From Methyloglobulus sp. (lineage in GTDB: Bacteria > Pseudomonadota > Gammaproteobacteria > Methylococcales > Methylomonadaceae): a stretch of DNA of 64,000 bases. The notes below the pieces were generated by a model. The model saw nothing but the letters and a program-made list of their open reading frames with translations, was not told the origin of the DNA and ran no database searches. The stretch spans positions 34,755 through 98,754 of the forward strand of contig CBDFHL010000006.1 of assembly GCA_965247625.1 (NCBI GenBank). Direction: 5' to 3'. Position numbers and translations under genes: made by a program. Shown here one piece after another: positions 13,545 through 51,750 of this stretch. The number at the start of each line of letters is the position of its first letter. Within the stretch, counting starts at the first letter, position 1.

Positions 13545-14450
13545 TTATTTGGCCATCTCGCGTTTTTTGAGTAATGACAGGGCAAAGGCATAAGTCTCTG
13601 GAAGATCAATGAGCGCTGTTTTACTTGCTGTTTGAATCTCCTTGAATAAGCCAAGTTGGGCTTTATATTTTAAACTCCCAATCCCTAACGGCCCGATACT
13701 GCGGAAACTACCATGCGCGTAATCAACAGGTGTGCCCAAATCATGCAAATTAACCCCTAAAACCCCACTAGGGGGAACAGCATTAGTATCAGCCACCACC
13801 ATTAAACTTTTAGCGTTGTTTAAATGTCCCTCCAAAATACGGATACCCGCTTTGGCTGCACAGATAATTATTTCTGTGTCAGCAATTTCTGTTGTTTTTT
13901 CTTTGTTGGTTTGTGTTGAAACCCATTGTACATCAGTCTTATAGCGCTCAAAGAAGCGCTTAGCGGCGGCTTGATCATCTTCTGCAAGTAGCTTACAGAG
14001 TTTAACGCTAGCACCCTGCTTCGCTGCTAGCATAGCGGCACTTACGCCCACGGGGCCGGAACCAAATACAGTTACCTTTCGCCCCTTTAAGCTACTGTTA
14101 AAATGCTCATCCAAAACCTGCTCAACCAATGCCACGATACTTGATGATGTGGTATAGGCACCGTTAGGGTCGGCAAAAACCCCTATTTCAAAGGGGCTAA
14201 CCATGGCATTTTTAGCGCTTTGAAACATATCGCTCGCCAAGTGGACGTCACGGCCACCGATAAATATTCCGGTATGATTAAATCGATTTGGCGGACGGCA
14301 GAAGATGGCATCTTGAACCATACCAGTGACTTGTTTTAGCTCGACATTCGTGAGCGGTATCACCATATCAAATCCAGCATCAGCCGCAATAGTGGCATCA
14401 AATGGGCTTATATTTGCGGCAGGTGTTAAAAAGTAAAGGATTTTTTTCAT
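13545..14450 (-). CDS. Methylene-tetrahydromethanopterin/tetrahydrofolate dehydrogenase family (MtdA/MtdB-like)
   Basis: It appears colinear with what I recall of MtdA: FIGGRD (vs FVGGGD), DPNGAYTTSSSIVALV (vs DSNGSNTTAAAGVALV), GRKVTVFGSGPVGVSAAMLAAKQGA (Rossmann), VADTNAVPP, GPLGIGSLKYK. Confidence 0.8.
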   Translation of the reverse strand: MKKILYFLTPAANISPFDATIAADAGFDMVIPLTNVELKQVTGMVQDAIFCRPPNRFNHTGIFIGGRDVHLASDMFQSAKNAMVSPFEIGVFADPNGAYTTSSSIVALVEQVLDEHFNSSLKGRKVTVFGSGPVGVSAAMLAAKQGASVKLCKLLAEDDQAAAKRFFERYKTDVQWVSTQTNKEKTTEIADTEIIICAAKAGIRILEGHLNNAKSLMVVADTNAVPPSGVLGVNLHDLGTPVDYAHGSFRSIGPLGIGSLKYKAQLGLFKEIQTASKTALIDLPETYAFALSLLKKREMAK

Positions 14451-14674
14451 TATTTGGCGGCTTCATATTTTATTTATACACGTCATAAATATAGTTGATG
14501 AATATTTAAATACTATGTAAGAAACCTTATGTTATACAGGCTTATTTCAGGATAATTGCGGCAGATAATGCGATAAGTGGCGGGTAAAAATGTTTTGATC
14601 GCATTTTACCCAGGAAAATATGAAAGTAAAATAGCGACAATCCGAAGGCCATGGCTTAAGGTTGAAGTTAACCG

Positions 14675-15874
14675 CTAATCTAAGCTGCTCAACACATCTT
14701 TAGCCCAAGTGATACTTTTAAAGTAAGCTTCACTAATCATTTTTTGATCCATACTCCTGAAATACATCCCGGAAAGATTCCAATGCTCATAATTTACAAC
14801 GCATTCAAGCGCTTCTCCCGCCAGTCCCTCTTTATTTAATATGGCTAATTTAACATCATTCGCTAACGGTAATTGTTGCAATGCCTCGTCCAGCGGGATA
14901 TCTAATATGCTGTCGATACTCGATAAAATACCAATAAGGAAAAAGTGATCCGCTTTTTCATCAGCAAATTTACCTAAATATTCACACATTTTTCCGCGGA
15001 TCAATGAGTTTTGCAGGGTAGCTTTAGGTTTATTGGACAAAGAAGCCAGCGTCAAAATATTGGACCAGCGTTTAACTTCTTTTAACCCCAAGTAAGATAT
15101 AGCATGCTGTATTGATTCAATCTTGCTAGGTAATGCAAAAAATGCAGAATTTATATAATGTAAAAGTTTATAACTAAGCCCGACATCCAATGATATTGTT
15201 TTTGCTAGCTGATCAATTTCTACCTCTGGATCATTGATGATAGTTAGCAACCTAATTGCAGCCGTTTGATTAACGCCTAGGCGTTTACCTGGAACAGTAT
15301 TGGGCTTGTTAAAAAAGAAACCCTGAAAATAATCACAACCTAATTCGCTTAGGTACTGGAATTCTTCATGAGTTTCTACTTTTTCTGCGAGCAGCTTAAT
15401 ATTATAGGATTTAAGATGCTTAATGGCATTCCTGGTTCTTTCCTCCCCCATTTCCAGAACATCTAGTTTGATAATGTCAGCAAATTCAATCAACGGTTTC
15501 CATTCATCTGAATAAACAAAATCATCTAATGCAATCGTATAACCTTGCTGGGAAAATTCCTTTAGGTTGTTGATGATTCTCAAGTCAACCGCAACATTTT
15601 CCAAAACCTCAATAACAACCCTGTCTTTAGGTAAGCTTAAAGGTGTTTTTTCTAGGATATTCTGCGAGGTAAAATTAATAAAAGCTTTGTGGGAACCTAC
15701 TAAGTTATTTAAACCGAGCTCAAGTATCGAGTCAGTAATTATTTGATTCGTCGCCTGGGTTGCTTCACTATTATTTTTTAAATCTAAATCTTTGCCTCTA
15801 AAAAGGAGCTCATAAGCATAAATATCCAACTTTTGATCAAGTATTTGCTGCCGTCCGATAATGAAGTCTGCCAT
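14675..15874 (-). CDS. EAL plus HDOD domain protein (c-di-GMP-related)
   Basis: N-terminal YELLFRG EAL-type signature with downstream DDF.. and ..KLD motifs. The C-terminal half resembles HDOD (..LLHYINSAFFALPSKIESIQHAISYLG..). Confidence 0.85.
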   Translation of the reverse strand: MADFIIGRQQILDQKLDIYAYELLFRGKDLDLKNNSEATQATNQIITDSILELGLNNLVGSHKAFINFTSQNILEKTPLSLPKDRVVIEVLENVAVDLRIINNLKEFSQQGYTIALDDFVYSDEWKPLIEFADIIKLDVLEMGEERTRNAIKHLKSYNIKLLAEKVETHEEFQYLSELGCDYFQGFFFNKPNTVPGKRLGVNQTAAIRLLTIINDPEVEIDQLAKTISLDVGLSYKLLHYINSAFFALPSKIESIQHAISYLGLKEVKRWSNILTLASLSNKPKATLQNSLIRGKMCEYLGKFADEKADHFFLIGILSSIDSILDIPLDEALQQLPLANDVKLAILNKEGLAGEALECVVNYEHWNLSGMYFRSMDQKMISEAYFKSITWAKDVLSSLD

Positions 15875-16013
15875 TTTGCTTATGTAGAGATATTGGGTTG
15901 GATGTTAGATAAAGTTAGCATAGAAAACAAAACTCAGTTGTAAATATAAATATCTTCCATTAATCCTATAAAAAAATAAATATTCACTATAATATTCAAC
16001 AAGTTATATAATT

Positions 16014-18993: not shown

Positions 18994-20280
18994 ATGGTGA
19001 CTGTAAAAAAAGTTGAAGAGATTAATGCAATTGTAAAAAAGCATAAGGCCATTATTAATTGCGAGAACTCATTGCCTTTAGCTTCTAGGAAAATTTTTAA
19101 TATTCTGTTGTTCTTAGTTAAAGACAGATTCGGGAAAGATCTTGAGCATCACGTTTCCGAAAGTGATGTGATTTCTCTTTTAAATAAGACAGATAGGGAT
19201 ATTACAAACGCAAGGATCAACTATAAAAAATTGGCTTCCACAGTTATTGAATACAATATATTAAATAATGAAAGGGACCATCTTAATGGCGTTGGAACCA
19301 TGTTGGCTCCTGCGGTTATAAATAAAACCAAAAAAACCTGGAATTTTTCCTTTCCGCCAAATATTGTCCAATGGGTTCAGGATCCAAATTCATTTGTATT
19401 TTTGGATATTACGACACAAGAGCGTTTCAGCTCTAAATATTCACAAGCACTATGGGAAATTTGTATAGGTAGCTTAGAAGATCAGTTAGAGTCATATTTC
19501 TCAGTGAAATTAGATGAATGCCGTATTTTAATGTGCGGCAAAGATAATCATCAAATCTATAAGGATTTTAAACGCCGCGTTGTTATGACTGCAATTAATG
19601 AGATTAATGAAAAATCACTTTTGCATGTTGACTTATATCAAGAAAACAAAGAAGGGAGGAAGGTGACTGAATTAGTATTCTTTGTGACAAGAGAAGAATA
19701 TATTGAACCAAAACAACTGATTTCCAATGATGACTTGCTTGAGAAAATGGTTGAGGTATTTGGCATAACTGGCAATGTGGCCAATAAAATTATTAATACT
19801 TATGATAACGAACATATCTTAAGGAACTTGGACTACACCGAACAACAGTTTAAAAAAGCCATTAAAAATAAAAAAGAGAACCAGTTTAATGTTGGTGCTT
19901 ATGCAACTAGTGCGATCATTAAGGATTATGCCCCTAAACAAGCAAAATTATTATCTAGGGTTATCGAGGAAAAAGAGCATAAGAAAAGTACTGAATTAGG
20001 TTTAATTGAGTTAAATAAGAAAAATGATGATGAACTTGCAAAAAAAATCATGAAAAATTATGAAAAAATTGAACCTGTCTTGCAGCAGGGGTTAAAGACT
20101 GAGTTTGAAAAAAATGGAATTCGTGGCCCAATTAAAAAGCTTTTTAATTCTGAAGGATGGGGTTCTAAGCAAATAAACAACCATTTTTTTCTATTTCTTG
20201 CATCGCAAATAGAGCAAGGCAGAAAAGGGCAGGGCTATGATCAAATTAATGAATTTCTAGTTAAAAGTGCAACGCACTAA
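18994..20280 (+). CDS. Iteron-type plasmid replication initiator (Rep_3/RepB-like)
   Basis: 428 aa, directly downstream of the iterons. The N-terminal segment ..NSLPLASRKIFNILLFLVK.. resembles winged-helix Rep initiators. AAGGA SD sequence. Confidence 0.75.
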   Translation: MVTVKKVEEINAIVKKHKAIINCENSLPLASRKIFNILLFLVKDRFGKDLEHHVSESDVISLLNKTDRDITNARINYKKLASTVIEYNILNNERDHLNGVGTMLAPAVINKTKKTWNFSFPPNIVQWVQDPNSFVFLDITTQERFSSKYSQALWEICIGSLEDQLESYFSVKLDECRILMCGKDNHQIYKDFKRRVVMTAINEINEKSLLHVDLYQENKEGRKVTELVFFVTREEYIEPKQLISNDDLLEKMVEVFGITGNVANKIINTYDNEHILRNLDYTEQQFKKAIKNKKENQFNVGAYATSAIIKDYAPKQAKLLSRVIEEKEHKKSTELGLIELNKKNDDELAKKIMKNYEKIEPVLQQGLKTEFEKNGIRGPIKKLFNSEGWGSKQINNHFFLFLASQIEQGRKGQGYDQINEFLVKSATH

Positions 20281-20303
20281 AAATTGGCTATAGCCAATTT
20301 TTA
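20278..20303. repeat. 26-bp perfect palindrome TAAAAATTGGCTATAGCCAATTTTTA, containing copy 2 of the 16-bp core
   Basis: It starts inside the rep stop codon and sits between convergent rep and kfrA. It could also act as a weak bidirectional terminator. Confidence 0.6.
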
Positions 20304-20328
20304 TGTATATTACTGAAATATAACTAAA

Positions 20329-21237
20329 TTAATTATTGTGGGATTTTGGGTGTTTTTTTATAACGTTTTTATTTAAAAGGAGCCGTATTTTTTCTTCTCT
20401 GGCGGTGAGTTCTTTTTGTAATTTAGCTTCGATTAGGATCAGTCCAGCTTGTTTCAATTTCTCATCTGCATTTCGGCTTTCAAGTCCCATTATAATTTCA
20501 TTGTTTTTGCTGATTTGTTTGGCCATTGAGTCTAATTTGACTTGAAGTAATTTACTGCTTTGCTTGCTGCGGTCAGTTTCTGATTTCAGGCGATCAATTT
20601 CAGTCTTGAATTGCTGTTTAATAGTTTCTTTTTCTTCTTCGATACGTTTGATTGCCCACTCGTGTTCTTTAGTGTACTGCTTTTCAATCCAATTGTATTT
20701 TTCACGTTCTTGTCGTAGTTGCTCGGATAAAACGGCATTATTTTTTTCAAGTTTAGATGCAGCTGTATGGCAATACTCATTCTTTTCTATCAAATTTGTT
20801 GATTCAATCGATATCCGATTTATTTCTTTTTTTAGATGGTGTATTTCTTCCTGATATTTTTGTGCTGTCAGTTGCACCAGTTCTCGAATTCTAGATGTTT
20901 CTTCATTTAATGTTTTTTCTTTGTTCTCTAATACTGCCTGTTTGTTTTGTAAAATAACGGTTTCTTCATCAAAAGTTTTTTTTGCTTCAAGTAATGCTTC
21001 TTCCCATATGCCAGTCATTGCAGAAATTAGATGCTTTGGCATCGCCGGGTTGTGGGGTTGTGATTTATTTATTGCTTGCGATAAGTTGAGTTTCCAGTCC
21101 TTAATGGCACTAGAAATTGTCGTTGGGCTGTTGACATTAATAATCGGCTTGATTGATTCAATGGTAGGCATTAATCCGGTTTTTAAAAAATAAGCTTCAC
21201 ATGCTTCATATGCCAGGGTGTAAGTGGTTTTTTTCAT
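20329..21237 (-). CDS. kfrA: KfrA-like plasmid DNA-binding coiled-coil protein
   Basis: N-terminal KfrA_N-like segment (AYEACEAYFLKTGLMPTIESIKPIINVNSPTTISSAIKDWK), followed by ~220 aa of heptad-rich E/K/Q coiled coil. Confidence 0.75.
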   Translation of the reverse strand: MKKTTYTLAYEACEAYFLKTGLMPTIESIKPIINVNSPTTISSAIKDWKLNLSQAINKSQPHNPAMPKHLISAMTGIWEEALLEAKKTFDEETVILQNKQAVLENKEKTLNEETSRIRELVQLTAQKYQEEIHHLKKEINRISIESTNLIEKNEYCHTAASKLEKNNAVLSEQLRQEREKYNWIEKQYTKEHEWAIKRIEEEKETIKQQFKTEIDRLKSETDRSKQSSKLLQVKLDSMAKQISKNNEIIMGLESRNADEKLKQAGLILIEAKLQKELTAREEKIRLLLNKNVIKKHPKSHNN

Positions 21238-21495
21238 TTTAGGAATGGCCTAAATAACATTGGGTTTTTCTAAGGTATTATAGGGCGAGGCTAGAAAATA
21301 TTAATAATATATTAAGTAAAACACTAAAATAAATTATATTGTTACTCATATTATGGATATAGCTACAATTATATCAACTATAAAAATTTACTGGATTTGC
21401 TCTTCTTAATGCGTTTATATCCTCAACATAATTTATAGGCATACCAAATATTTAAAAAGAACATTGTAAATATGGAATGAATTGCCATAATTACT

Positions 21496-22668
21496 ATGAT
21501 GATAACCAGAAGAGCACAAAATATATTGCTACAGTTGTTGGATGATTTCCCTGCTGTTGGCTTATTAGGGCCAAGGCAGGTAGGAAAAACTACGCTCGCT
21601 TTAGCATTGGCTGATAAATACCCAGTTGTATATTTAGATTTAGAATCAACGGTTGGTCAAGCTAAATTGCAGAATCCAGAGCTTTATCTAGCTGAGCATC
21701 GAGATAAACTTGTTATTTTGGACGAAATTCAACGCGCGCCAGGGTTGTTTAAAAATCTTCGTGGTTTGATTGATAAAGGGCGAAGGGAAGGCCGGTGTAA
21801 TGGCCGTTTTTTACTGTTAGGGTCGGCTTCAATTGAATTATTGAAGCAATCGGGCGAAAGCTTGGCTGGCAGAAATGCTTATCTTGAATTAACGCCATTT
21901 GATGTTTTGGAAGTTGGACCCGAAAAAACCGATAGCTTATGGCTGCGTGGTGGCTTTCCTGACAGTGTGCTGTCAGCAAATGATAGCAGTAGCTTAAGAT
22001 GGCGCCAGAACTTTATCAATACTTATCTGGAGCGCGATATCCCACAGTTAGGCCCACGTATCCCCGCTGAGACTTTACGACGTTTTTGGAGCATGTTGGC
22101 ACATAATCAGGGTGAGTTACTGAATGCTGCTAAACTGGCTGCGGCTCTCGGTGTGGATGGTAAAACTATTGCCCGCTATTTGGACTTATTGGTTGACTTA
22201 TTGCTCGTGCGAAGGCTAAAGCCTTGGCACACCAACAGTGGTAAACGGTTGGTTAAATCGCCTAAAACCTACATTAGGGATAGCGGTATTGCCCATGCAC
22301 TTTTAGGTATTGTCGACAAAGAAACTTTGTTGGGTCATCCTGTTTGTGGTCGAAGTTGGGAAGGTTTTGTCATTGAGAATTGTTTGTCTGTCGTCCCCCC
22401 GCACAGTGAGGCTAGTTTTTATAGGAGCAGTTCAGGTGCGGAGTGCGACTTGATCCTAAAATTTCCTGATCAAACGCAATGGGCTATTGGGGTCAAAAGG
22501 AGTTTGGCGCCTAGCTTAAAAAAAGGCTTCTATTTTGCCAAAGAAGATATTCAACCGGTGGCAAGTTACGTGGTTTATCCAGGCAATGAAGCTTATTCAA
22601 TTGCCGAAGACATTAAAGTTATCGGTTTAACGGCAATGGTGCAGTTAATTGCTGCCCAGGCAATGTAG
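21496..22668 (+). CDS. AAA ATPase of the AAA_14/DUF4143 type
   Basis: Walker A motif GPRQVGKTT, Walker B motif LVILDEIQ. The C-terminal region is typical of DUF4143 proteins. Confidence 0.8.
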   Translation: MMITRRAQNILLQLLDDFPAVGLLGPRQVGKTTLALALADKYPVVYLDLESTVGQAKLQNPELYLAEHRDKLVILDEIQRAPGLFKNLRGLIDKGRREGRCNGRFLLLGSASIELLKQSGESLAGRNAYLELTPFDVLEVGPEKTDSLWLRGGFPDSVLSANDSSSLRWRQNFINTYLERDIPQLGPRIPAETLRRFWSMLAHNQGELLNAAKLAAALGVDGKTIARYLDLLVDLLLVRRLKPWHTNSGKRLVKSPKTYIRDSGIAHALLGIVDKETLLGHPVCGRSWEGFVIENCLSVVPPHSEASFYRSSSGAECDLILKFPDQTQWAIGVKRSLAPSLKKGFYFAKEDIQPVASYVVYPGNEAYSIAEDIKVIGLTAMVQLIAAQAM

Positions 22669-22932
22669 TGCGAAGACCAACAGCCATATCAAGCAGGTAA
22701 GTATTCTAATTTTAAGGGGGTCACAAAAAAATTATTCAATTATTTGCCATAATTTAAAAGGTTAATGTGCCCTTAGTCTTGAGAGCCAAGGTAGTGACCT
22801 TACAGTCATACAATGAAAAAGTAGCAATATTAAAAAGTTTGATTGATATGGTGACCTAAAATCGACTTGAATTTAATCGGGCTAATATTCATTAGCTAAG
22901 CCCAAATCATCAGTAATAAACAGGTTCAAATT

Positions 22933-23988
22933 ATGACGCAATTACGTGTTGGAATTATCGGTCTTGGTAGGGTAGGGCGCGGAATTGTACGCGCAAATTT
23001 CGATCAAACCGAAGGTGAAAAATTTAACGTTTGCGCGTTATGTGATGTTATGCCAGAGGATCAGGTGACTTATTTATTGGCTAATGACAGCACTTACGGT
23101 AAGCCGCCTTATACGCTCGATTGTGGGAATAAATATATTGTCGTAGGGGGCAAAAAAGTAGCTTACGTCCGTGGGGACAGGCGGCGCAATATTCTTGACC
23201 ATGAAAGCTTTTCTGACCTTAGAAAATTAGAGTTGGATATCATTATTGATTCAACAGGCACTGCGAAAATTAATGATTTACGTGGGCTAATCGAGCAAAA
23301 CATTGCCAAAAAAGTACTCTGTACTGCCAATATTGCGGGTATTGATATCAGTATTGTCTATGGTGTTAACCAGGGACAGTATGATCCTTTGCAGCATCAG
23401 GTTATTGCCGCCAGTACCTGTACCGGCAACGCGATGACACCGGTGGCTTATATATTGAATAAACATATTGGTATTGACTACGCTAGAATCACGACCATAC
23501 ACCCGGCACTTTCCGACCAACGGGTATTGGATGGCTTCCATTTCTCTACTGCACAACTCGGCCGAAGCTGTGCAGCATCGATCATCCCGATTAGTACTAA
23601 TGTCGCCAAATCGACTAATTTAGTGTTACCTGAGCTTGAAGGTAAACTTGATTCCATCTCATACCGGGTACCCACAGAAATTGTTTCAGTGATGGACGTG
23701 ACAGCGACCTTAAGCCGAGATACTTCCCTAGAAGAATGTACAAAACTTTTGGAGCATTACGCCCAAAATGAGCTTAAAAATATCGTTCACTGCGAATACG
23801 GTTCTTGGGGCCACGAAAAAGCAAGCATCGACTATTTGGGAACTGAGTACTCAGTTATTATCCTTATGAAACATATGCAGCTGAGTCATAAACGGCAACT
23901 GGGGTTAGCTATGATGCATGATAATGAGCGTGCTTACTGTTGCCGCGTATTGGACGTTTTAGGCGTACTTCAGCAAGCATGGGGTTAA
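22933..23988 (+). CDS. Divergent glyceraldehyde-3-phosphate dehydrogenase family protein
   Basis: GLGRVGR (NAD fold), NDSTYG (vs YDSTHG), and the catalytic-Cys context ASTCTGN (vs SCTTN). Also TIHPALSDQ, IIPISTNVAKS, LPELEGKLDSISYRVPT and MHDNERAY (vs WYDNE). Confidence 0.75.
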   Translation: MTQLRVGIIGLGRVGRGIVRANFDQTEGEKFNVCALCDVMPEDQVTYLLANDSTYGKPPYTLDCGNKYIVVGGKKVAYVRGDRRRNILDHESFSDLRKLELDIIIDSTGTAKINDLRGLIEQNIAKKVLCTANIAGIDISIVYGVNQGQYDPLQHQVIAASTCTGNAMTPVAYILNKHIGIDYARITTIHPALSDQRVLDGFHFSTAQLGRSCAASIIPISTNVAKSTNLVLPELEGKLDSISYRVPTEIVSVMDVTATLSRDTSLEECTKLLEHYAQNELKNIVHCEYGSWGHEKASIDYLGTEYSVIILMKHMQLSHKRQLGLAMMHDNERAYCCRVLDVLGVLQQAWG

Positions 23989-24100
23989 AATACTTGTCTC
24001 CAAAATTATCTGAAGCTTATCGCATTGGCTACAAATAAAAGTTGATACCTTTACTGTCTTAATGACTGCATTAGGGCTGCGTATAGAATCGATAACTACA

Positions 24101-24126
24101 TATATTAACTAGCGCTAGTTTTCCGG
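24101..24126 (+). repeat. 26-nt direct repeat, copy 1 (TATATTAACTAGCGCTAGTTTTCCGG)
   Basis: It matches 25028-25053 at 24 of 26 positions. It contains the palindrome AACTAGCGCTAGTT followed by TT. Confidence 0.7.
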
Positions 24127-24283
24127 ATATTCAAATTCATGAGGTTTTTAGGGTACTTTTCCAGACTAAAAATTAGGTCTTCGTCGTAAAAATATGCTAG
24201 CAAATCTTGAAGATGACTTGAAGAGTGTTAATTGACATCCATATCTTTCGGATGATTAGCACACTTGAAGTATATATAATAAT

Positions 24284-24300
24284 GGTATAATTTATATACC
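24284..24300 (+). promoter_or_regulatory. brnTA promoter -10 (TGGTATAAT) embedded in the inverted repeat GGTATA-N5-TATACC
   Basis: An extended -10 element, TGnTATAAT, at 24283-24291, with a TTGACA at 24231-24236 further upstream. The inverted repeat abuts the brnT ATG at 24301, so the leader would be very short. Confidence 0.45.
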
Positions 24301-24564
24301 ATGATCTCATTCGAATTTGACGAAACCAAGAGCCAAGCCAACTTTTCAAAACATGGCATCAATTTTATGGAAGCACAGATGTTATGGCATGATCCCATGC
24401 TGCTGGAAATTCCGGCAAAAACATTTGATGAACCCAGATACTTGGTAATAGGGCTTATCGAGGGCAAACATTGGTCAGCCGTCATTACATACCGTGGTAA
24501 AGCTATTCGAATTATTTCTGTCCGTCGTTCACGAATTGAAGAGGTAACATTCTATGAAAGCTAA
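24301..24564 (+). CDS. brnT: BrnT-family (DUF497) type II toxin
   Basis: FEFDETKSQANFSKHGINFMEAQMLWHD... matches the BrnT N-terminal signature. 87 aa. Confidence 0.88.
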   Translation: MISFEFDETKSQANFSKHGINFMEAQMLWHDPMLLEIPAKTFDEPRYLVIGLIEGKHWSAVITYRGKAIRIISVRRSRIEEVTFYES

Positions 24565-24805
24565 TTTGTTTGATACACAATTTGATGAGGGTATCGATGT
24601 CACTGTGTCCCTCGATTTATCCAAAGCAAAACGCGTTTTGCTGGAGCAAAAACGGGTAAATGTTGATTTTCCTGCATGGATGATTGAATCGTTGGATCGG
24701 GAAGCAGGAAAAATCGGTGTTACTCGACAATCTATTATCAAGGTTTGGTTAGCCGAACGCCTTGAAGAATCAGTTTCTAAAAAACCGATCAATCGGATAT
24801 CTTGA
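24554..24805 (+). CDS. brnA: BrnA-type (CopG/RHH-like) antitoxin
   Basis: 11-nt overlap with brnT. KRVNVDFPAWMIESLDREAGKIGVTRQSIIKVWLAERL is the BrnA pattern. Confidence 0.85.
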   Translation: MKANLFDTQFDEGIDVTVSLDLSKAKRVLLEQKRVNVDFPAWMIESLDREAGKIGVTRQSIIKVWLAERLEESVSKKPINRIS

Positions 24806-25027
24806 CGCCTTAAACCACATGAGTTTAACGATTGAATTCTTCCTGTTTCGCTTCTAAGTCACTACAAAAGATTTCAAATGGTATTGTTGTTTAGCGAATA
24901 AAGATAAATGTCTTAATCGTTAATCTTATCGGGTCTGGTTAACGAAATCTTAACAAATAATTTTTATCCAAAAATAGCATAAGATCCTTAAAAACAACAA
25001 TATAAAAAATTGATATAAAGCTCTCCT

Positions 25028-25053
25028 TATATTAACTAGCGCGAGTTTTCCAG
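25028..25053 (+). repeat. 26-nt direct repeat, copy 2 (TATATTAACTAGCGCGAGTTTTCCAG)
   Basis: See copy 1. It lies 222 nt downstream of the brnA stop and upstream of the intron-like RNA segment. Confidence 0.7.
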
Positions 25054-25399
25054 CTTTGCGCTTGGGGGTGCATGGCTGGCAATAATTGCTAGAATTTAAC
25101 CGGTATTTTATCAATTTCTTGCATTTATTTCCCGCATTAATTTAATCTTTATACTATTTAATCAATAGGTTGTAATATTTTCAGGGACGACTAAATAGAT
25201 TTGCAGAGTTTCCATAGTAGTCTGAGATGGGGAAAACCTATTACCTGGCGAAGGGGAACAGTTTAAGGAATTTGCTTGGAAAATTACCTGACTCTAGTGA
25301 GGTGAAGACCTTTGATAATCAGTGAAATGCAAAACAAAATTGCAACGTGGGTTTGCGCTATTAAGACGTTGCAATGGCTATGAGCCATTCTTAAATGGA

Positions 25400-25484
25400 G
25401 AGCCGTATGCGCTGAAAGGTGCACGTATGGTTCGGGGAGAAGAAGCAGGGAAATAGTTCGACTACGTCCTGCTTCTTACTCTAC
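25400..25484 (+). mobile_element. Group II intron 3' end: ribozyme domains V and VI (no intron-encoded protein nearby)
   Basis: Domain V at 25400-25433 is GAGCCGTATGCGCTGAAAGGTGCACGTATGGTTC. It has a 9-bp lower helix with the AGC triad, a 2-nt AC bulge, a 5-bp upper helix and a GAAA loop. In domain VI, 25436-25449 pairs with 25468-25482, leaving A25478 unpaired as the 7th nt from the terminal ..CTAC (25484). The hairpins GCAACGT..ACGTTGC and AATGGCT-ATG-AGCCATT just upstream look like a domain IV stub. Confidence 0.85.
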
Positions 25485-25633
25485 TTCCGACTGCCGATAT
25501 GGCTCAACAAAAAAGTATTTGTATAGCTAGCTAAATAACAAAGGGTAGCGGATTGGGATCCGGTTGGGATTAATAAATACGATGCCGAAATTACTTCAGG
25601 TGGCGTAAATTGAGAAACCGAGGTAATTACGTA

Positions 25634-26662
25634 TCACTCAATATGTGTTACTAGATTCCGCCCATCATGTTTAGAACGGTACAAGGCCTTATCCGCGCGT
25701 TCAAAAAAATCTGATATCGGTTCTTTTAGGCGATAACGGGTGACGCCAATAGAAACTGTTATACGGCAGATTTCTTCTTGGCTTTTGGCGCGTTTAATTC
25801 GGGTGTTCTCAACAATTTGCCTAATACTTTCTGCCAGCTTTACTGCACCCTGCAAATCGGTTTCTGGTAATAGCACGCAGAATTCCTCGCCGCCATAGCG
25901 GGCGGCGGTATCCTTGCCTTTAGTTTGGTTGTTTAAAGTATCACCAACTACTTTAATAACATTGTCACCTAGTAAGTGACCGTGAGTGTCATTGATGTTT
26001 TTGAAGTTATCGATGTCAATCATCAAAATACATGGTGAAGATGTCAACTCACCTATAGATGAAATTGCCGCTTCGATCGCTTTAGTTAAGCCTTTGCGGT
26101 TGACCAGTCCTGTGAGCGAATCAGTCATCGCTTCTTCACTTATTTTTTCCAAGCGCTCTTGCAAGGCATTAATTTCGTGCCGGCTATCTTGAATTTGCTG
26201 GCGCATCATGCCCATTGAGGCTTGGATGGATTTCGTGCTTGCTAATAAGTGGGTCACTATTGTTTCAAGTGAACTGTTGGGTTCTGCAAGTTCCTTTTCG
26301 CTACGTTTTAAGGTGTGGCCAAATTGATTTACATTTTCTTCTGTTAGGTTAGCAGAGTTGGCTAAGGATGAAATGATATCAATCAGATCAGCTTTTGATT
26401 GTTGAAGATGGGTAAGGTCATACTCGGATAAATAAACTTTAAACCAATGCGCCATCATGGGGTCTGTTAACTCAACTTTTCCCTGGATAGCTTTGTCGAT
26501 CTCTCTTTTAAGTGCCGGATGCGCCCCCAAGAGATATTCATAACATACAGTATAGTTCACCGGGTTTGCTGACAGGTGATGAGCACCAATAAAAGCAATG
26601 GCTTGCTTGAGCATTTCTCGGCTTTCTAAAGCCGATTCAGGCGGTCTTGAAATAACCATCAT
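25634..26662 (-). CDS. Diguanylate cyclase (GGDEF) with N-terminal helical sensor region
   Basis: Active-site RYGGEEFCVLLP, ..DIDNFKNINDTHGHLLGD.. and the C-terminal ..ADKALYRSKHDGRN. Confidence 0.92.
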   Translation of the reverse strand: MMVISRPPESALESREMLKQAIAFIGAHHLSANPVNYTVCYEYLLGAHPALKREIDKAIQGKVELTDPMMAHWFKVYLSEYDLTHLQQSKADLIDIISSLANSANLTEENVNQFGHTLKRSEKELAEPNSSLETIVTHLLASTKSIQASMGMMRQQIQDSRHEINALQERLEKISEEAMTDSLTGLVNRKGLTKAIEAAISSIGELTSSPCILMIDIDNFKNINDTHGHLLGDNVIKVVGDTLNNQTKGKDTAARYGGEEFCVLLPETDLQGAVKLAESIRQIVENTRIKRAKSQEEICRITVSIGVTRYRLKEPISDFFERADKALYRSKHDGRNLVTHIE

Positions 26663-27368
26663 AAAGCGTAGTAAAAATTCATTTTTAAAGCGAAGGTTTC
26701 AATGGTGTATTAATTAGCTTTTACTGTTCTCAGTCAAAGAGGGCAGCGTAAACGCCATAGGTTACTAGTTTTCGCATTTTCAAGTTACCAATATTAGTCA
26801 TATAAGTATTTACCTTCTTAAAACAAAGCATTTTTATTCTTGCAGGCAGGTTATAAATTACTTTAGTAGGGACATAATTAATTTTAGTTGACTACGTTAG
26901 TTTTGTGCCTAATTTTTAAGAGGCTTAAAAAATACTTATTATAAATAAGTATAGTTAAAAAACAGATGGTTAGTCGTGTAAGTTCGAGAAAATTATATTT
27001 TGTTAGTTTAATTTAACGATTATTAACATTACACATAGCCATTTAGGTTAAAAAATTAGTGTTAAAACACAATAAAAAAAAGATAAGGCCACTTAAGAAA
27101 ATTATGGTCAGAACCGATAGGTAATAGCTAAAAAAAACCTATATAACACCTGTTAACCGTAAGCTAAATATTCTTTGGGATACTTGTCACAATTCTATAA
27201 AAGTACATTAGCTCTTTGATTTTTCATGGGCTATATTCAATCCGTACATTAAATACAGGCGCAAGGATTAAGTTAGGCAAAGGTTGCCGTTTTGTAAAAT
27301 GTGGTCCTCAATAAGTCTTGTGAATAAGCTAGAAATTTTATGAATTTTAATTAATGGAGTCATTGAAA

Positions 27369-27518
27369 ATGAAAGATATGAAAAGAGATGTTTTGATTGG
27401 TGCAATGTTTTTGTTTGGTATTTGTGGGTTTATTTCCGGTGAGTTTATTGCCTCCACGATGCTATTTGCTTCAGCGGCTATCTACAGTAATGTGGCATTA
27501 AATAGGCAATACAGTTAA
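27369..27518 (+). CDS. Hypothetical 49-aa membrane peptide
   Basis: Below the ORF-track size cut-off. The sequence is ATG MKDMKRDVLIGAMFLFGICGFISGEFIASTMLFASAAIYSNVALNRQYS TAA. GGAG lies ~10 nt upstream, and it is followed by the hairpin at 27548-27583. Confidence 0.35.
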   Translation: MKDMKRDVLIGAMFLFGICGFISGEFIASTMLFASAAIYSNVALNRQYS

Positions 27519-27547
27519 GGGCATAAAGGTTTTGAAGATGTGCAGAA

Positions 27548-27583
27548 GCTAAAGGCTGCTCCCGATAGGGCGTAGCCTTTAGC
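27548..27583 (+). other. Long hairpin (10-bp perfect stem GCTAAAGGCT/AGCCTTTAGC, 16-nt loop)
   Basis: Perfect inverted repeat 30 nt after the small ORF stop. There is no U-tract, so terminator function is uncertain. Confidence 0.4.
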
Positions 27584-27796
27584 CACATAACAATAGCGAG
27601 TTATTTTAAGGGAAAAGCATAGGTGAAAAGTTAGTTAAGTTTGATTAATTTATCGTTTGCTAAGTCAAATACCTGCCTCTGCAATATTGGGGCGATAAGC
27701 ACTAATAATTGTGATAAAAACAAAAAATATTTAGTTTTCTACCATACTTCTTATTTCAATTAGTGACTTGTCGATTAGCTATCAAATGGTTAAATA

Positions 27797-29290
27797 ATGC
27801 AGGGTATCTTCAAACTCCCCAAAATTTTTGGATTAATTTTCATTGTAGCAGTTCTGGTAAATTCCCCATCTATTGCGGCAGCGACGCGTCATGCGTTGTC
27901 GGATCAGCATATTCGTGACGTTGTTGAAAAGCTAATGCACGAAAAAAATCAGAAAATCGAACAACTGGAAGCCCGCATCAAGCAGTTGGAAACTCACCAG
28001 GCCGTTCCGCAAACGGCTACACAAGCCCAATCGGCTAATAACCAAACACAAACCAATAGCGATAAGCCCAAAGAAGCAAGCGCTCAGAACCTAGCATTGC
28101 CACCAGGTACCGTTGCCAAAAATAGCCACAGTGATTCGACCATCATGAGCAAGCTAGGTGATTTGGGGGAAGAAATTGAAGAATTAAAAGAAGGCGCAAA
28201 AGAAAAAGGCCTGGATATCAGCGGTTTTTTTGACGTGAATGCCAAAACCGATAATTCAACCGACCAGACGTTCAGCGTTGGTTCGGTCGAGCTGGATTTG
28301 GAATATGCTTACAATGATCGTTTTGCCGCCAGCTCGGCGATTGTTTTGTGCGGCAATTCTTCGGGTGTCGATTCTGCCGCGCCGGCCGCCATCTTCTGTG
28401 GCGGTAGCGGGCCGGGTGGCTTAGGCGGCGGCCAAGCCGGGATTGCAGTCGCGTTAGCTGACTTCCATATGTTCGATAATTCTATACCGCCAAGGGGCCG
28501 GATTTTCAATAACCAAGGCTTTCATATCCAGGCTGGACGCTTTGATATTCCGTTCTCCACCGATTACCAGAATTTCGCCAATACTGATCGGGTGACTGTC
28601 ACGGCGCCTATTACCACATCCAGGATGCAATTCGGCGGATTTAACGGTGACGGGTTGCGGTCTTACGGTTCCTGGAAATTCTTAAACTACTCCGTATTCT
28701 GGACAGACGCTATGTTCGCCAATGATGGCACGTCGGTAGGTGGCCGTCTGGGGCTAGCACTGGGCCAAAATAATTACCGTAGCCATAAAAATAACCCAGA
28801 AGGTATTGAGGCTGGCGTGTCGTATCTAGCCGATTTGGACAAAAACTATAATTTGCGTCATGCGGTTTATGGTGTCGACTTGAGCTTGGGTTACAGTTTT
28901 CTCCGCTTACAAAATGAATTATTACTGACCCAAGCATATAACAATTTTGAAGTTACCGACGATGCTGGCAATATCATCGCAGATTACGGCAAGCCCCACC
29001 AATTAGGCTACCATTCGACTTTAACGGCAGATTTGGAGCGGTTTATCGGCTATCCAGTGATTACCTTTATCCGTTATGGCCGATGGGAGCCGAAAGCCCG
29101 TAAAGCAGAGGATTTTGATGGCACACTTGTCGATATAAAGAATATTTCAGCATTAACGGTTGGCCTAAATTATCGCTTTAGTGAATATCTCAAACTTAAG
29201 TTCGAGTATACCGATTCGTTGGGTTCATCCACGACAGAACGTTTTTTTGATAAGCAATTGGGTATAGCCCAGATGGTCGTGTCTTTCTAA
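27797..29290 (+). CDS. Porin-like outer-membrane beta-barrel protein with N-terminal coiled coil
   Basis: Signal peptide (..VNSPSIAAA), then a coiled coil (EKNQKIEQLEARIKQLE). The region after that is rich in alternating G/Y/F residues. The C-terminal ..GIAQMVVSF ends in Phe, as in OMP barrels. Confidence 0.7.
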   Translation: MQGIFKLPKIFGLIFIVAVLVNSPSIAAATRHALSDQHIRDVVEKLMHEKNQKIEQLEARIKQLETHQAVPQTATQAQSANNQTQTNSDKPKEASAQNLALPPGTVAKNSHSDSTIMSKLGDLGEEIEELKEGAKEKGLDISGFFDVNAKTDNSTDQTFSVGSVELDLEYAYNDRFAASSAIVLCGNSSGVDSAAPAAIFCGGSGPGGLGGGQAGIAVALADFHMFDNSIPPRGRIFNNQGFHIQAGRFDIPFSTDYQNFANTDRVTVTAPITTSRMQFGGFNGDGLRSYGSWKFLNYSVFWTDAMFANDGTSVGGRLGLALGQNNYRSHKNNPEGIEAGVSYLADLDKNYNLRHAVYGVDLSLGYSFLRLQNELLLTQAYNNFEVTDDAGNIIADYGKPHQLGYHSTLTADLERFIGYPVITFIRYGRWEPKARKAEDFDGTLVDIKNISALTVGLNYRFSEYLKLKFEYTDSLGSSTTERFFDKQLGIAQMVVSF

Positions 29291-29411
29291 TATGAATAGC
29301 CTTGTCATTCCGACCACGGGTAGGAATCCTTGTGCCTTTAGTGATCGACATGGCAATGAAGGTTGAGATAACAAATAACGAAAAATAGATGCTAAGAAAT
29401 AATCAGCCAAT

Positions 29412-29915
29412 ATGAAACCCAATAGTTATTTCACAATTATACTTATGTTGTTATGCCTTTGCGGGGCAGGGCGGGTGTTTGCGCAAAACCCGCATGAAAT
29501 ATCACCGCAAAACCATGACATTGATTGTGCCAGTTGTCATCTTGAAAAACCACAAGTGGCCACTACGGGATTATTGAACAGCAAAAATCATCAAGCTGAC
29601 CCTGCCTACTTCAAAGCTGATGGCATCGAGATGTGTTCCGGTTGTCATGACAAAGACGATGGTCACAAAGTAGGCCTAAAGTTAGAGTTTGATGTCCCTG
29701 CTGATATGCCGTTGGGGACAAAAAATAAACTGACCTGCTTAACCTGCCACTATACTCATGGCAGCCTGAGTAGTAATAAACCGCAAGCTAGCGTGAGTTT
29801 TATGGATAGCATGCTGAATGCAGAACGGTTACACAAAAGTTTCTTACTGCGCCGCAATAATGCCGAAGGCGACTTATGCTTAACCTGTCATGAGGTCAAA
29901 GAGGGATCAAAATAA
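29412..29915 (+). CDS. Periplasmic tetrahaem c-type cytochrome
   Basis: Signal peptide ending VFA/QNP. Four CxxCH motifs: CASCH, CSGCH, CLTCH, CLTCH. Confidence 0.88.
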   Translation: MKPNSYFTIILMLLCLCGAGRVFAQNPHEISPQNHDIDCASCHLEKPQVATTGLLNSKNHQADPAYFKADGIEMCSGCHDKDDGHKVGLKLEFDVPADMPLGTKNKLTCLTCHYTHGSLSSNKPQASVSFMDSMLNAERLHKSFLLRRNNAEGDLCLTCHEVKEGSK

Positions 29916-30481
29916 TGTCTACGAATGAAAATAAACGCCGCAAACTCTTTATTAATAAAACCTTTCAGGGTCGTTTTATTTTAAATGTGTTTCTCTTGAT
30001 TTTACTGTCAAGCCTTTGCTCGGCCTTGCTGATCTACTGGATTACGGGGGGTGATTTACAAGCTGAATTGCAAACCGCACATGGCAGCATTACCAATGCG
30101 CTTGATCACCTCGGCATTTCGATATTTATCGGTAACATGGTGGCGTTGCTGGTGGCTGGCATCATTAATATTTTTATGGTGTTGTACGCTTCCCATAAAA
30201 TTGCTGGCCCCTTGTACCGTTTTGAGAAATTGTGCGAACAAATTGGTGATGGCCAATTGGACGGCATCACTACACTCAGACAGGGCGACCAACTCCAAGA
30301 TATCGGACGGGCATTTAATGAGATGGTCACCAAATTGCGTCACCGTAAAGAACAGAAATCAATTCTCATCGCCCAATTAAACCATGCGCTTGAAAGCTTG
30401 CAACAAGACCAGGCGGTTGCCGCCAATTATTCAGAGCAATTAGAGCAGGTGCGCCAGGCCCTTACCCAGTTACAGGAGTAG
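29915..30481 (+). CDS. HAMP-only membrane protein (2 TM + HAMP, no output domain)
   Basis: Its start overlaps the cytochrome stop (TAATG). It has two TM helices, then HKIAGPLYRFEKLCEQIGDGQLDGITTLRQGDQLQDIGRAFNEMVTKL (HAMP pattern), then a short coiled coil. Confidence 0.75.
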   Translation: MSTNENKRRKLFINKTFQGRFILNVFLLILLSSLCSALLIYWITGGDLQAELQTAHGSITNALDHLGISIFIGNMVALLVAGIINIFMVLYASHKIAGPLYRFEKLCEQIGDGQLDGITTLRQGDQLQDIGRAFNEMVTKLRHRKEQKSILIAQLNHALESLQQDQAVAANYSEQLEQVRQALTQLQE

Positions 30482-49134: not shown

Positions 49135-49881
49135 ATGGAATCTCAATCAGACTTTTTAATTAGCACCCCAGAAAAGATAATCAGTAAATTATCCATTTTA
49201 CTGAAAAATAAAAATTTGCTGACGGCGAGCTTTGGTGACAGAGGCCAAAAATTTGTGTCTACCATCCTTGAAATTAATAAAAAAGATAATGTTTTTATCT
49301 GTGACGGATGCGATGAAGAGCTGCTTGATAATGCGCTTAATAGCTCAAGGATATTGTTCAAAACGGAGCATATGGGCGCGCTGGTGACATTCGATTCAGG
49401 CAAACTAGCAAAAACCCAATATCAAGGCGTTTTGGCATTCTCAGTGCCTATCCCTTCATCAATGCGGTGGCTTGAGCAAAGGGAGTTCTATCGGATGCGT
49501 GTGCCGGTGCCAACAACGAGCTGTTGCCAGTTAGCCTTAAATGGCCATGGGGAAATTAGCTTAAAATTATATGATATTAGCCTTCGTGGGTTTTCTATTA
49601 TCAACGCTTCGGAAGATATTTCAGAGTTATTGGTGACGGGTGGCCAATTTGAAAAATGTAAACTCATTTTTGAAGATAAACAAGAAGTGATGATGTCTTT
49701 TGAGATACGGAGCAAATTTTTAGTGAATGCCAATAATCTCAATAAAATGGAAAGGATAGGCTGTAAATTTATGCAAATAACCCCAGCTTTCGAAAATACC
49801 ATACATAGTTATATGCTACAAATTGAGCGGGAGCTGCTTAAAAAGCGGGCTGAAAACGTCGAGTTTGCTAACTATAAATAA
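49135..49881 (+). CDS. PilZ-domain c-di-GMP receptor (YcgR/FlgZ-like flagellar brake)
   Basis: PilZ RxxxR motif (QREFYRMR) followed by a D/NxSxxG motif (DISLRGFS), preceded by a YcgR-N-like domain. Its position after flgM-flgN matches Pseudomonas flgZ. The start is uncertain (ATG 49135 preferred over track TTG 49105; neither has a good SD sequence). Confidence 0.8.
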   Translation: MESQSDFLISTPEKIISKLSILLKNKNLLTASFGDRGQKFVSTILEINKKDNVFICDGCDEELLDNALNSSRILFKTEHMGALVTFDSGKLAKTQYQGVLAFSVPIPSSMRWLEQREFYRMRVPVPTTSCCQLALNGHGEISLKLYDISLRGFSIINASEDISELLVTGGQFEKCKLIFEDKQEVMMSFEIRSKFLVNANNLNKMERIGCKFMQITPAFENTIHSYMLQIERELLKKRAENVEFANYK

Positions 49882-49924
49882 CAGTAGGTTTTTTCAATCA
49901 GATTGGGCTTATTAAGCAACGGGT

Positions 49925-50386
49925 TTAAACATTCTTCATATTGTTGGCGTTATTTCTGCCCAAACGGGATGCACGTTCATCTTGCTCTAGCTGTTCGGAT
50001 TTACTTTCCTGTTTAAGTTCAGTTTTCAATGCGGCCTGATAAATCTTTTTCAGGCTTTTGGTGCGGTGGTGCATGCTTTCCCAGATTTTCCGTTTGGTAG
50101 CTAATTCGGCTTTGCTCTGGTCAAGGGACTGTTCTTGCCCTGCGATGGCTTTATCCAGCTTGTCCATAAATGACCGGAATTCAAGCAACTGGCCGACATT
50201 GGCGCCGGCGTTGCCAAGGCGATTAAACTTATCCTGATAGTCTTGCCGGTATTTTTTTAGGTTGTCGACTTGCGCCTGCATGGCCATCAGCTTCCTTTGG
50301 GATGCGCCCAATGCTTCCAGGCTGTCCTGTTCTTGCGCCGCTTTAAGGTCGACTATTGTTTTAATGCGTTGTGATTTTTTGGTCAT
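49925..50386 (-). CDS. fliJ: Flagellar export protein FliJ
   Basis: 153-aa coiled coil immediately after fliI (4-nt overlap). Confidence 0.88.
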   Translation of the reverse strand: MTKKSQRIKTIVDLKAAQEQDSLEALGASQRKLMAMQAQVDNLKKYRQDYQDKFNRLGNAGANVGQLLEFRSFMDKLDKAIAGQEQSLDQSKAELATKRKIWESMHHRTKSLKKIYQAALKTELKQESKSEQLEQDERASRLGRNNANNMKNV

Positions 50387-51750
50387 GGGTTAATAGCCGT
50401 GTTATGCGTACCCAGTAACTGCCTTAGCTCGTCCAGGCTGCGGTTTATATTGACCGGTTCATTCATGCTTTGTTGAAGGAATTCGACAATCGCCGGGTGT
50501 TTTTCAATAGCTTGGTCAATCCGGCGGTCAGAACCGGGTTGGTAAGCCCCGACACTGATTAAGTCTCGATTTTGTTGATAAAGCGAATAAATCCGCCTGA
50601 CATCCCGTGCCATCTGTAAATGTTCGTTATCGACAATATCTGACATTACACGGCTTACTGAAGCTTCGATGTCGATAGCTGGGAAATGGCCTGATTCCGC
50701 CAGGCTTCTTGATAAGACAATGTGGCCATCCAACACGCCCCGTGCAGCATCTGCAATGGGGTCATTCGTATCATCACCTTCCGCTAATACGGTATAAAAA
50801 GCAGTAATCGACCCGCCACCGACATCAGCATTGCCAGCACGTTCAACCAGATGCGGCAGTTTAGCAAATACCGAGGGCGGATAGCCTTTGGTGGCGGGTG
50901 GCTCATCGATAGCTAAGGCAATTTCTCGGTGTGCCTGGGCAAAGCGGGTCAATGAATCCATCAACAACAACACATCAAGCCCCTGATCACGGAAATATTC
51001 GGCAATACTGGTCGCAAGCAGTGCGCCATGTACCCGCATCAAGGGTGGGCAATCGGCTGGTGTAGCGACGACAACTGCGCGTTTAAGCCCTTCTTCACCC
51101 AGTATTTTTAATACAAATTCATTGACTTCCCGTCCCCTTTCGCCAATCAACCCCACAACAACCACGTCGGCGGTCGTAAATTTGGTCATCATGCCAAGCA
51201 ATATACTCTTACCGACACCAGTACCGGCGAATAGCCCCATACGTTGGCCGCGGCCGACGCAGAGAAGGGAATTAATAGCCCGGACGCCAACATCCAATGG
51301 CTCCCGTATCGGTTTTCTGGATAATGGGTTAATCGGCGTACCATTCAGCGATATCTGGGAATCGGTTTTCAGTGGGCCTTTATCATCTAACGGGTTACCT
51401 GAGCCATCAAGTACCCGGCCTAAAAGGCCAAACCCTACTCTTGCCAAACTGTTTTTGCCGAGTGGGATTACTTTGCAATCGGGCTCAAGACCATGCAATT
51501 CACCGGCAGGCATTAGAAATACGCGTGTCCCGGCAAAGCCAACGACTTCGGCCTCGATTGTTGCGCCGGATTTTGTCTCAATACGGCAACGGGAACCTAT
51601 GGCTGCCCGGCAACCGACAGCTTCTAACGTCAGGCCAACCATACGCGAAAGTTTGCCTTCAACAATAAGCTCGGGTGTCCCGGTTAATTTTTTTGAGTAT
51701 GCCTTTAATTGCCCTGCCCAAATGTGGGAGCGGTCTGTTTTCGGAATCAT
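50383..51750 (-). CDS. fliI: Flagellum-specific ATPase FliI
   Basis: Walker A motif GTGVGKS, Walker B motif LLLMDSLTR, F1-ATPase beta-like fold pattern. Confidence 0.97.
   Translation of the reverse strand: MIPKTDRSHIWAGQLKAYSKKLTGTPELIVEGKLSRMVGLTLEAVGCRAAIGSRCRIETKSGATIEAEVVGFAGTRVFLMPAGELHGLEPDCKVIPLGKNSLARVGFGLLGRVLDGSGNPLDDKGPLKTDSQISLNGTPINPLSRKPIREPLDVGVRAINSLLCVGRGQRMGLFAGTGVGKSILLGMMTKFTTADVVVVGLIGERGREVNEFVLKILGEEGLKRAVVVATPADCPPLMRVHGALLATSIAEYFRDQGLDVLLLMDSLTRFAQAHREIALAIDEPPATKGYPPSVFAKLPHLVERAGNADVGGGSITAFYTVLAEGDDTNDPIADAARGVLDGHIVLSRSLAESGHFPAIDIEASVSRVMSDIVDNEHLQMARDVRRIYSLYQQNRDLISVGAYQPGSDRRIDQAIEKHPAIVEFLQQSMNEPVNINRSLDELRQLLGTHNTAINP

Follow-up and report, generated by a model that had tools for sequence, protein, structure and literature searches.

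A 3' remnant of a probable E.c.I4-like group II intron fused to an IS5-family terminus in Methyloglobulus sp.

Introduction

The described systems that come closest to the element considered here are the bacterial group II introns E.c.I4 and S.f.I1, which belong to ORF class A, lack an endonuclease (En) domain and were represented in 2013 by three near-identical members (PMC3552965). The sites used by E.c.I4 are specific positions within IS3-like transposases (PMC3522654), and fragments of this intron have been reported from mobile DNA (PMC3522654; PMC3552965). The lineage to which our sequence belongs shares with these introns both the missing endonuclease domain and the fixed position in IS3-like transposase genes (PMC3522654; PMC3552965); the copy described here differs from them in that domain I, most of domain II and the ORF are gone.

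According to Leclercq and Cordaux (PMC3522654), a fragment typically occurs singly, in mobile DNA and with no active copy beside it in the genome, and solitary remnants of this sort are reported to be the rule among the group II introns of bacteria (PMC3522654; PMC4496777). Fragmented or inactivated introns are exemplified by the RmInt1 remnants of Sinorhizobium (PMC4496777; PMC4181065) and by the fragments found in Enterobacteriales (PMC3522654). Like these, the remnant that we describe sits alone in mobile DNA, and its genome contains no active counterpart; it differs from them in that the 5' part was lost, the 3' terminus was kept and the ORF was deleted as well.

Two further kinds of group II intron have to be set against this locus. 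Natural ORF-less introns mobilized in trans, such as those of cyanobacteria and archaea, possess a complete ribozyme consisting of domains I to VI, are accompanied by related intron-encoded proteins (IEPs) in the genome and occur in several copies. Our sequence has in common with them a domain IV that is cut to about 135 nt while its structural elements are kept; unlike them, it has no complete ribozyme, no related IEP and no multiple copies. Class C (IIC) introns, in turn, have a short ribozyme and insert directly after terminator stem-loops, whereas the relatives of the intron studied here home inside an ORF and have about 750 nt of ribozyme RNA. The sole likeness to class C is a hairpin-containing repeat some 140 nt upstream, and this repeat belongs to the flanks of a brnTA gene pair, with insertion sequence (IS) DNA lying between it and the intron.

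The DNA that we analyzed, hereafter called the window, is a stretch of 64,000 nucleotides from a contig of Methyloglobulus sp. An earlier note, made from the sequence alone, had marked positions 25054-25484 as an ORF-less group II intron segment and had offered two explanations for it: the 3' remnant of a degraded intron, or a miniaturized intron mobilized in trans. Our data support the former, as domain I and most of domain II are absent and the IEP ORF is deleted; in all probability, positions ~25195-25484 represent an inactive 3' fragment of an E.c.I4-like bacterial group II intron.

Results

Rfam model RF00029 matched positions 25398-25484 of the plus strand with 62.9 bits (gathering score 40; E 5.4e-10 when both strands of the entire 64-kb window are scanned), with the alignment spanning the full model from 1 to 77. 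This is the sole Rfam match above gathering score within the window, and it bears out the assignment of domains V and VI made in the earlier note. Domain V occupies 25400-25433 (+), where the AGC triad, the AC bulge and the GAAA tetraloop are legible in the sequence itself; a consensus fold built from five full-length relatives and the window sequence reveals compensatory changes in its stem in two of these relatives, G161 and G198. Domain VI, which is supported by the same model and by the consensus fold, follows at 25436-25482 (+) and carries a bulged branch-point A at 25478, seven bases away from the CUAC 3' end of the intron at 25484. The position of this 3' end is the same as in 57 relatives.

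The surviving intron sequence is not confined to the last ~90 nt, a pattern that the earlier note had associated with a plain remnant; domains III and IV are present as well, and what does agree with that expectation is the absence of the decisive domain I. Domain III (GAGUUUCCAUAGUAG...GGCGAAGGGGAAC) lies at ~25206-25259 (+), as indicated by the consensus fold, by 93% identity to the full-length intron of a related methanotroph (G078) and by a weak match of RF01998 to 25173-25256 in a permissive scan (22 bits, E 0.9), centered on CCAUAGUAG...GCGAAGGGG. Homology to full-length introns and the consensus fold identify GGCGAAGGGGAAC (25247-25259) as the 3' strand of this domain, so that the loose resemblance to domain III noticed previously near 25248 proved genuine. 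Domain IV, devoid of its ORF, extends over 25261-25396 (+) according to homology, blastn, the consensus fold and the junction sequences. Its surviving ~135 nt retain the basal stem UUUAAG/CUUAAA, in which G198 and G161 show wobble changes, together with the hairpins around the Shine-Dalgarno sequence and the start codon; the hairpins formerly taken for a domain IV stub are consequently real and are what is left of this domain after removal of the ORF. Of the domain II basal stem, alignment and the consensus fold retrieve the last ~9 nt of the 3' strand at 25195-25203 (+), whose pairing partner GGUCUAUUUA has been lost.

What is missing becomes apparent from intact copies. The fragment is 93-97% identical to full-length introns of ~2.28 kb from related methanotrophs (G078 and G317). 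A search of 100 genomes of the same family with positions 25198-25484 yielded a split match in G078, with bases 1-154 aligning at 93% and bases 159-287 at 95% identity in blocks that are 1.45 kb apart; no ORF-less copy turned up among these family genomes. The G078 intron is complete (2,279 nt, L011:1995-4273, ends GUGCG...CUCUAC) and contains an ORF for a 508-aa protein with RVT_1 and GIIM domains, in which Pfam detected no endonuclease domain. The host gene of this intron is an IS3-family orfB, whose reading frame ...DITY↓IPMTKGFMYLVA is restored once the intron is precisely removed (the arrow marks the insertion point here and below). When this intron was compared by blastn with the whole window, exactly two segments were returned and nothing else matched in the 64 kb: 25194-25351 corresponds to intron nt 544-702 (93%) and 25356-25484 to nt 2151-2279 (95%). 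The window copy therefore lacks nt 1-543, that is domain I and most of domain II, and nt 703-2150; intron-derived sequence is limited to about 25195-25484, a total of 290 bases.

Rfam found no domain I in 24806-25194 at E values up to 10, and neither a GUGYG 5' end nor a domain I with exon-binding sites is present in the window as judged by blastn of the full-length relative. In agreement with the earlier note, which had found no GUGYG start, the relative matches the window only from nt 544 onward. GUGCG or GUGUG 5' ends are present in G078, G317, G198 and in a second intron scrap of the Methyloglobulus sp. genome itself (see below). Because it is devoid of domain I, the 5' splice site, the exon-binding sites and a cognate maturase, the remnant can neither splice nor move; it is unable to fold into a ribozyme and is inert as an intron. 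The split, ORF-containing form seen in G078 also occurs in G317, G214, G198 and G161, with ~1.45-1.6 kb between the two blocks. In the order-level search, all five near-complete relatives in which both blocks are present carry the ORF, and none of the 401 genomes sampled from the order contains the ORF-less form as a contiguous match. Neither the remnant nor any match to it was found among the 11 genomes of the same genus that were searched.

The second of the two losses lies within domain IV. At positions 25352-25355 (+), blastn against the full-length G078 intron and the junction sequences show that almost the entire RT/maturase ORF, 1,448 nt corresponding to intron nt 703-2150, has given way to about 4 nt. 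No convincing microhomology is apparent at this junction, the short insert being filler. What is left of the coding sequence is a relic ORF of 19 codons (57 nt) at 25327-25383 (+), in which about 10 N-terminal and 14 C-terminal IEP codons are joined out of frame. In keeping with this, the earlier note had reported that no RT ORF exists nearby: there is none within 20000-30000 or elsewhere in the window, and the nearest IEP genes reside on other contigs. The long-range domain IV stem AUUGCAAC/GUUGCAAU, which reads GGCGAC...GUCGCC in G198 and is now a hairpin, closely encloses the deletion. Only coding sequence was taken, and every RNA structural element of domain IV was spared, a pattern that a selected non-autonomous derivative would be expected to display. 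One might accordingly envisage that the ORF-deleted form existed before the IS truncation as a non-autonomous mini class A intron that was spread via the IEP of a full-length sibling. If true, it would represent a rare natural ORF-less derivative of an En-less lineage, yet we grant this idea only a slender chance.

The region to the left of the intron fragment has a different origin. Positions 25056-25194 (-) derive from one end of an IS5-family insertion sequence, of which ~140 bp are left that are 88% identical to the single full copy of this element on contig 4 of the same genome; the alignment with the end of this unique element covers 25054-25197. Starting from the inverted repeat TTAGTCGTCCCTGAAAA at its end, the fragment includes the leader and ~6 initial codons of the transposase gene (ATG, read as CAT at 25071-25073), and then breaks off; only one end of the element is present in the window, its inner end being broken at ~25056. 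The full copy is ~1.5 kb long, is bounded by 17-nt terminal inverted repeats (TTAGTCGTCCCTGAAAA/TTTTCAGGGACGACTAA) and encodes a 448-aa transposase with DUF772 and DDE_Tnp_1 domains (Pfam), on account of which we place it in the IS5 family. The inverted repeat of the window fragment ends at 25194, exactly where the homology to the intron starts; the junction therefore marks the point at which the IS inserted into the stem of domain II. It follows that 25054 cannot serve as the left boundary of an intron as had been assumed, and that the candidate start TTGCGC at ~25056 represents the inner end at which the IS was broken, followed by an AT-rich stretch that is the IS leader. The intact copy, at contig 4 positions ~143575-145085 (L012:1525-3035), has TTAA on both flanks and adjoins the gene for a LysR-type regulator.

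A 29-nt direct repeat at 25023-25051 (+) abuts the broken IS fragment, and its left counterpart lies at 24096-24124. The two repeats, 90% identical and each with the dyad AACTAGCGCNAGTT, are the only copies genome-wide and bracket a brnT gene (24301-24564) and a gene for a CopG-like antitoxin, brnA (24554-24805), with the Pfam domains BrnT_toxin and CopG_antitoxin. The hairpin-containing repeat at 25028-25053 that had been likened to an intron target is hence one of the two repeats flanking brnT/brnA; as IS DNA intervenes between it and the intron, it is no intron target. Since the right repeat abuts the broken IS end, the boundary of the brnTA cassette may be an end point of a deletion.

DNA and IEP searches of the eight contigs detected no full-length copy of this intron lineage in the genome (an assembly gap could hide one), no second copy of the ORF-less form and no cognate IEP; the best protein match, 38% identical over residues 8-236, belongs to another lineage. 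The only other same-lineage piece corresponds to intron nt 1-212 and is located at C7:671119-671331 (L021:1501-1713). It starts with GUGUG within an IS3 orfB, directly after ...WTTDITY, and its truncated end borders a gene for an IS110-like transposase. Given this 5' piece with its IS3 orfB 5' exon, one might ask whether the intron is a split one that is spliced in trans, with its 3' half in the window and its 5' half elsewhere in the genome. The contig 7 piece, however, covers nt 1-212 only, and nt 213-543, comprising most of domain I and domain II, were found nowhere in the genome by DNA search. Furthermore, the break in the window lies within the domain II stem at an IS terminus, whereas natural split introns break in domain IV, and both flanking exons are dead scraps of IS3 transposase genes, so that there is nothing to splice. 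We therefore regard a trans-splicing intron as next to impossible.

The genome does harbor three intact introns of another lineage, at C4:~14037-16000, C7:~49230-51220 and C7:~1050977-1054200 (L016, L017 and L020). They are ~1,992 nt long, are 99.5-99.9% identical to each other and encode a 441-aa IEP with RVT_1 and GIIM domains; RF00029 scores them at 36.4 bits, below the cut-off. One of these copies is split between the IEP and domain V by an IS4-like element of ~1.27 kb that encodes a 384-aa DUF4372+DDE_Tnp_1 protein and has 16 nt duplicated at its junctions, which indicates that the insertion of IS elements into introns is an ongoing process in this genome. The search for full-length copies with an IEP that the earlier note had advised has consequently uncovered no partner for the remnant, but solely the 5' piece of 212 nt and the three introns that belong to an unrelated lineage.

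These results also bear on the proposal that ~25054-25484 constitutes a functional miniaturized ORF-less intron, spliced and kept mobile by a reverse transcriptase acting in trans. Its domains V and VI are intact, the basal stem of domain IV and the former start-codon hairpins have been kept, and the genome encodes the three intact IEPs just described. Yet 25056-25194 is IS DNA, there is no GUGYG start and no domain I with its exon-binding sites, and the IEPs in question, the only ones in the genome, are 38% identical in their RT part. Moreover, the sequence is present in a single copy, with no other ORF-less copy among the 401 genomes of the order. Lacking a 5' splice site, domain I, a cognate IEP and a second ORF-less copy, a miniaturized intron mobilized in trans is thus extremely unlikely, and we return to the inactive 3' fragment as the appropriate reading of the locus.

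The homing site of the lineage was read from the flanks of its relatives. Among species-representative genomes, 111 IEP relatives were found, of which the best 80 were kept; these 80 stem from Proteobacteria, Firmicutes, Desulfobacterota, Acidobacteriota and others. The IEPs of the lineage (L047-L126, L127 and L043-L046) are 61-100% identical to the G078 protein, and their introns have about 750 nt of ribozyme RNA. Of the loci assembled for this purpose (the best 80 of the 111 relatives plus five fetched separately), 57 had a readable 3' flank, and almost all of these flanks continue with the sequence (I/M)xTxxG(W/F)xYLAVVxD of IS3-family/rve transposases. The introns reside at D(I/F)TY↓(I/M)xTxxGWxYLAVVxD, nearly always at the same codon of the transposase ORF. 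An intron of class C at a stem-loop target, to which the earlier note had seen a resemblance, is refuted by this consistent use of one motif inside IS3-family transposase ORFs (n = 57).

The same homing site, DFTY↓VSTWQGFVYVAF, is occupied by an intron of the Escherichia coli plasmid pAA-EA11, which shares the position D(I/F)TY↓I/V...G(W/F)xY with the full-length methanotroph relatives. Its IEP is 65% identical to that of G078, both proteins being about 500 aa long, and the window fragment is 80-84% identical to this intron in domains III-IVa and IV-VI. We call the pAA-EA11 intron E.c.I4 on the basis of its published target, IS3-like transposases, and not by comparison with a named reference sequence. 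By this published target and by pairwise IEP identity, the window fragment would belong to the E.c.I4-type lineage and, with it, to class A. The lineage can be characterized as having an En-less RT/maturase, a putative IIB-type RNA and, by literature, an ORF of class A; the Rfam D1-D4 models gave no match to the full-length G078 intron at E values up to 1 and hence provide no basis for the RNA subclass.

The window has preserved a trace of this homing site. A position weight matrix derived from 54 distinct 3' flanks of the relatives gave positions 25485-25496 (+) a score of 7.82 bits, compared with a member median of 7.44, and 0.024% of the window positions score as high. These ~12 nt, which read (I)PTA..., are the former 3' exon from an IS3-family transposase gene. 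Past nt 12 of the 3' flank, the matrix detected no homing-site signal, a gapped search of the flank found no downstream GGCTGG block of the IS3 transposase, and 25485-25640 has no other copy in the genome. The sequence past 25496 is unrelated to the homing site.

The fragment is followed by a GGDEF gene on the minus strand (25634-26662). It folds with -88 kcal/mol (z = -3.7 versus shuffled sequences) and sits between convergent genes, two properties that fit an exapted RNA or DNA element, for instance one in which the domain V/VI hairpins terminate or stabilize the transcript of brnTA or that of the convergent GGDEF gene. The hairpins are not followed by a run of T, however, the remnant is missing from the 11 genomes of the same genus that were searched, so that no conservation can be claimed, and recent descent from an intact intron explains the entire sequence. 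We thus judge exaptation to be very unlikely. The well-kept surviving domains, with their canonical domain V and a fold better than that of shuffled sequences, could suggest retained function; a recent origin fits equally. In view of the 93-97% identity to intact copies in other genera, good preservation and a folding z-score of -3.7 are in line with recent decay of the inactive intron fragment.

Discussion

The data lend themselves to a simple model for the history of this locus. Retrohoming would initially have placed the intron in an IS3-family transposase gene of a plasmid-like replicon, at the site D(I/F)TY↓I. An IS5-family element may then have entered the domain II stem in its 3' strand, and a later deletion, following this insertion, would have removed most of the IS along with the 5' exon, domain I and what was left of domain II. 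The internal deletion that took 1.45 kb of the IEP ORF could have occurred before or after the IS insertion and truncation, and the 3' exon would also have been lost about 12 nt beyond the splice site. The boundaries, the two losses, the identity of the IS fragment, the lack of partners in the genome and the homing site of the lineage are all observed, whereas the order of events and the mechanism of the deletions are what we infer.

The locus should therefore be annotated as a fragment of a group II intron joined to the end of an IS5-family insertion sequence, and not as an ORF-less intron. Remnants of this kind are already known, and the one described here is ordinary genomic debris; it adds one more case of bacterial intron decay by IS insertion and deletion in mobile DNA. 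A 428-aa protein encoded at 18994-20280 contains Rep3 domains, in keeping with a replicon of the plasmid type. This replicon may be seen as a graveyard of nested mobile elements, in which an IS3 element was followed by the intron and the intron by the IS5-family element.

With regard to the E.c.I4-type lineage as a whole, of which three near-identical members were listed in 2013, our survey extends its occurrence to many phyla, almost invariably at one motif of IS3 transposases. A further example of decay within the lineage is provided by the G214 copy (L043:~500-545, G214:C1), which is otherwise complete and lacks the 5' splice site; owing to a deletion, the IS3 orfB codons ...DAISPN are here directly followed by nt ~42 of the intron.
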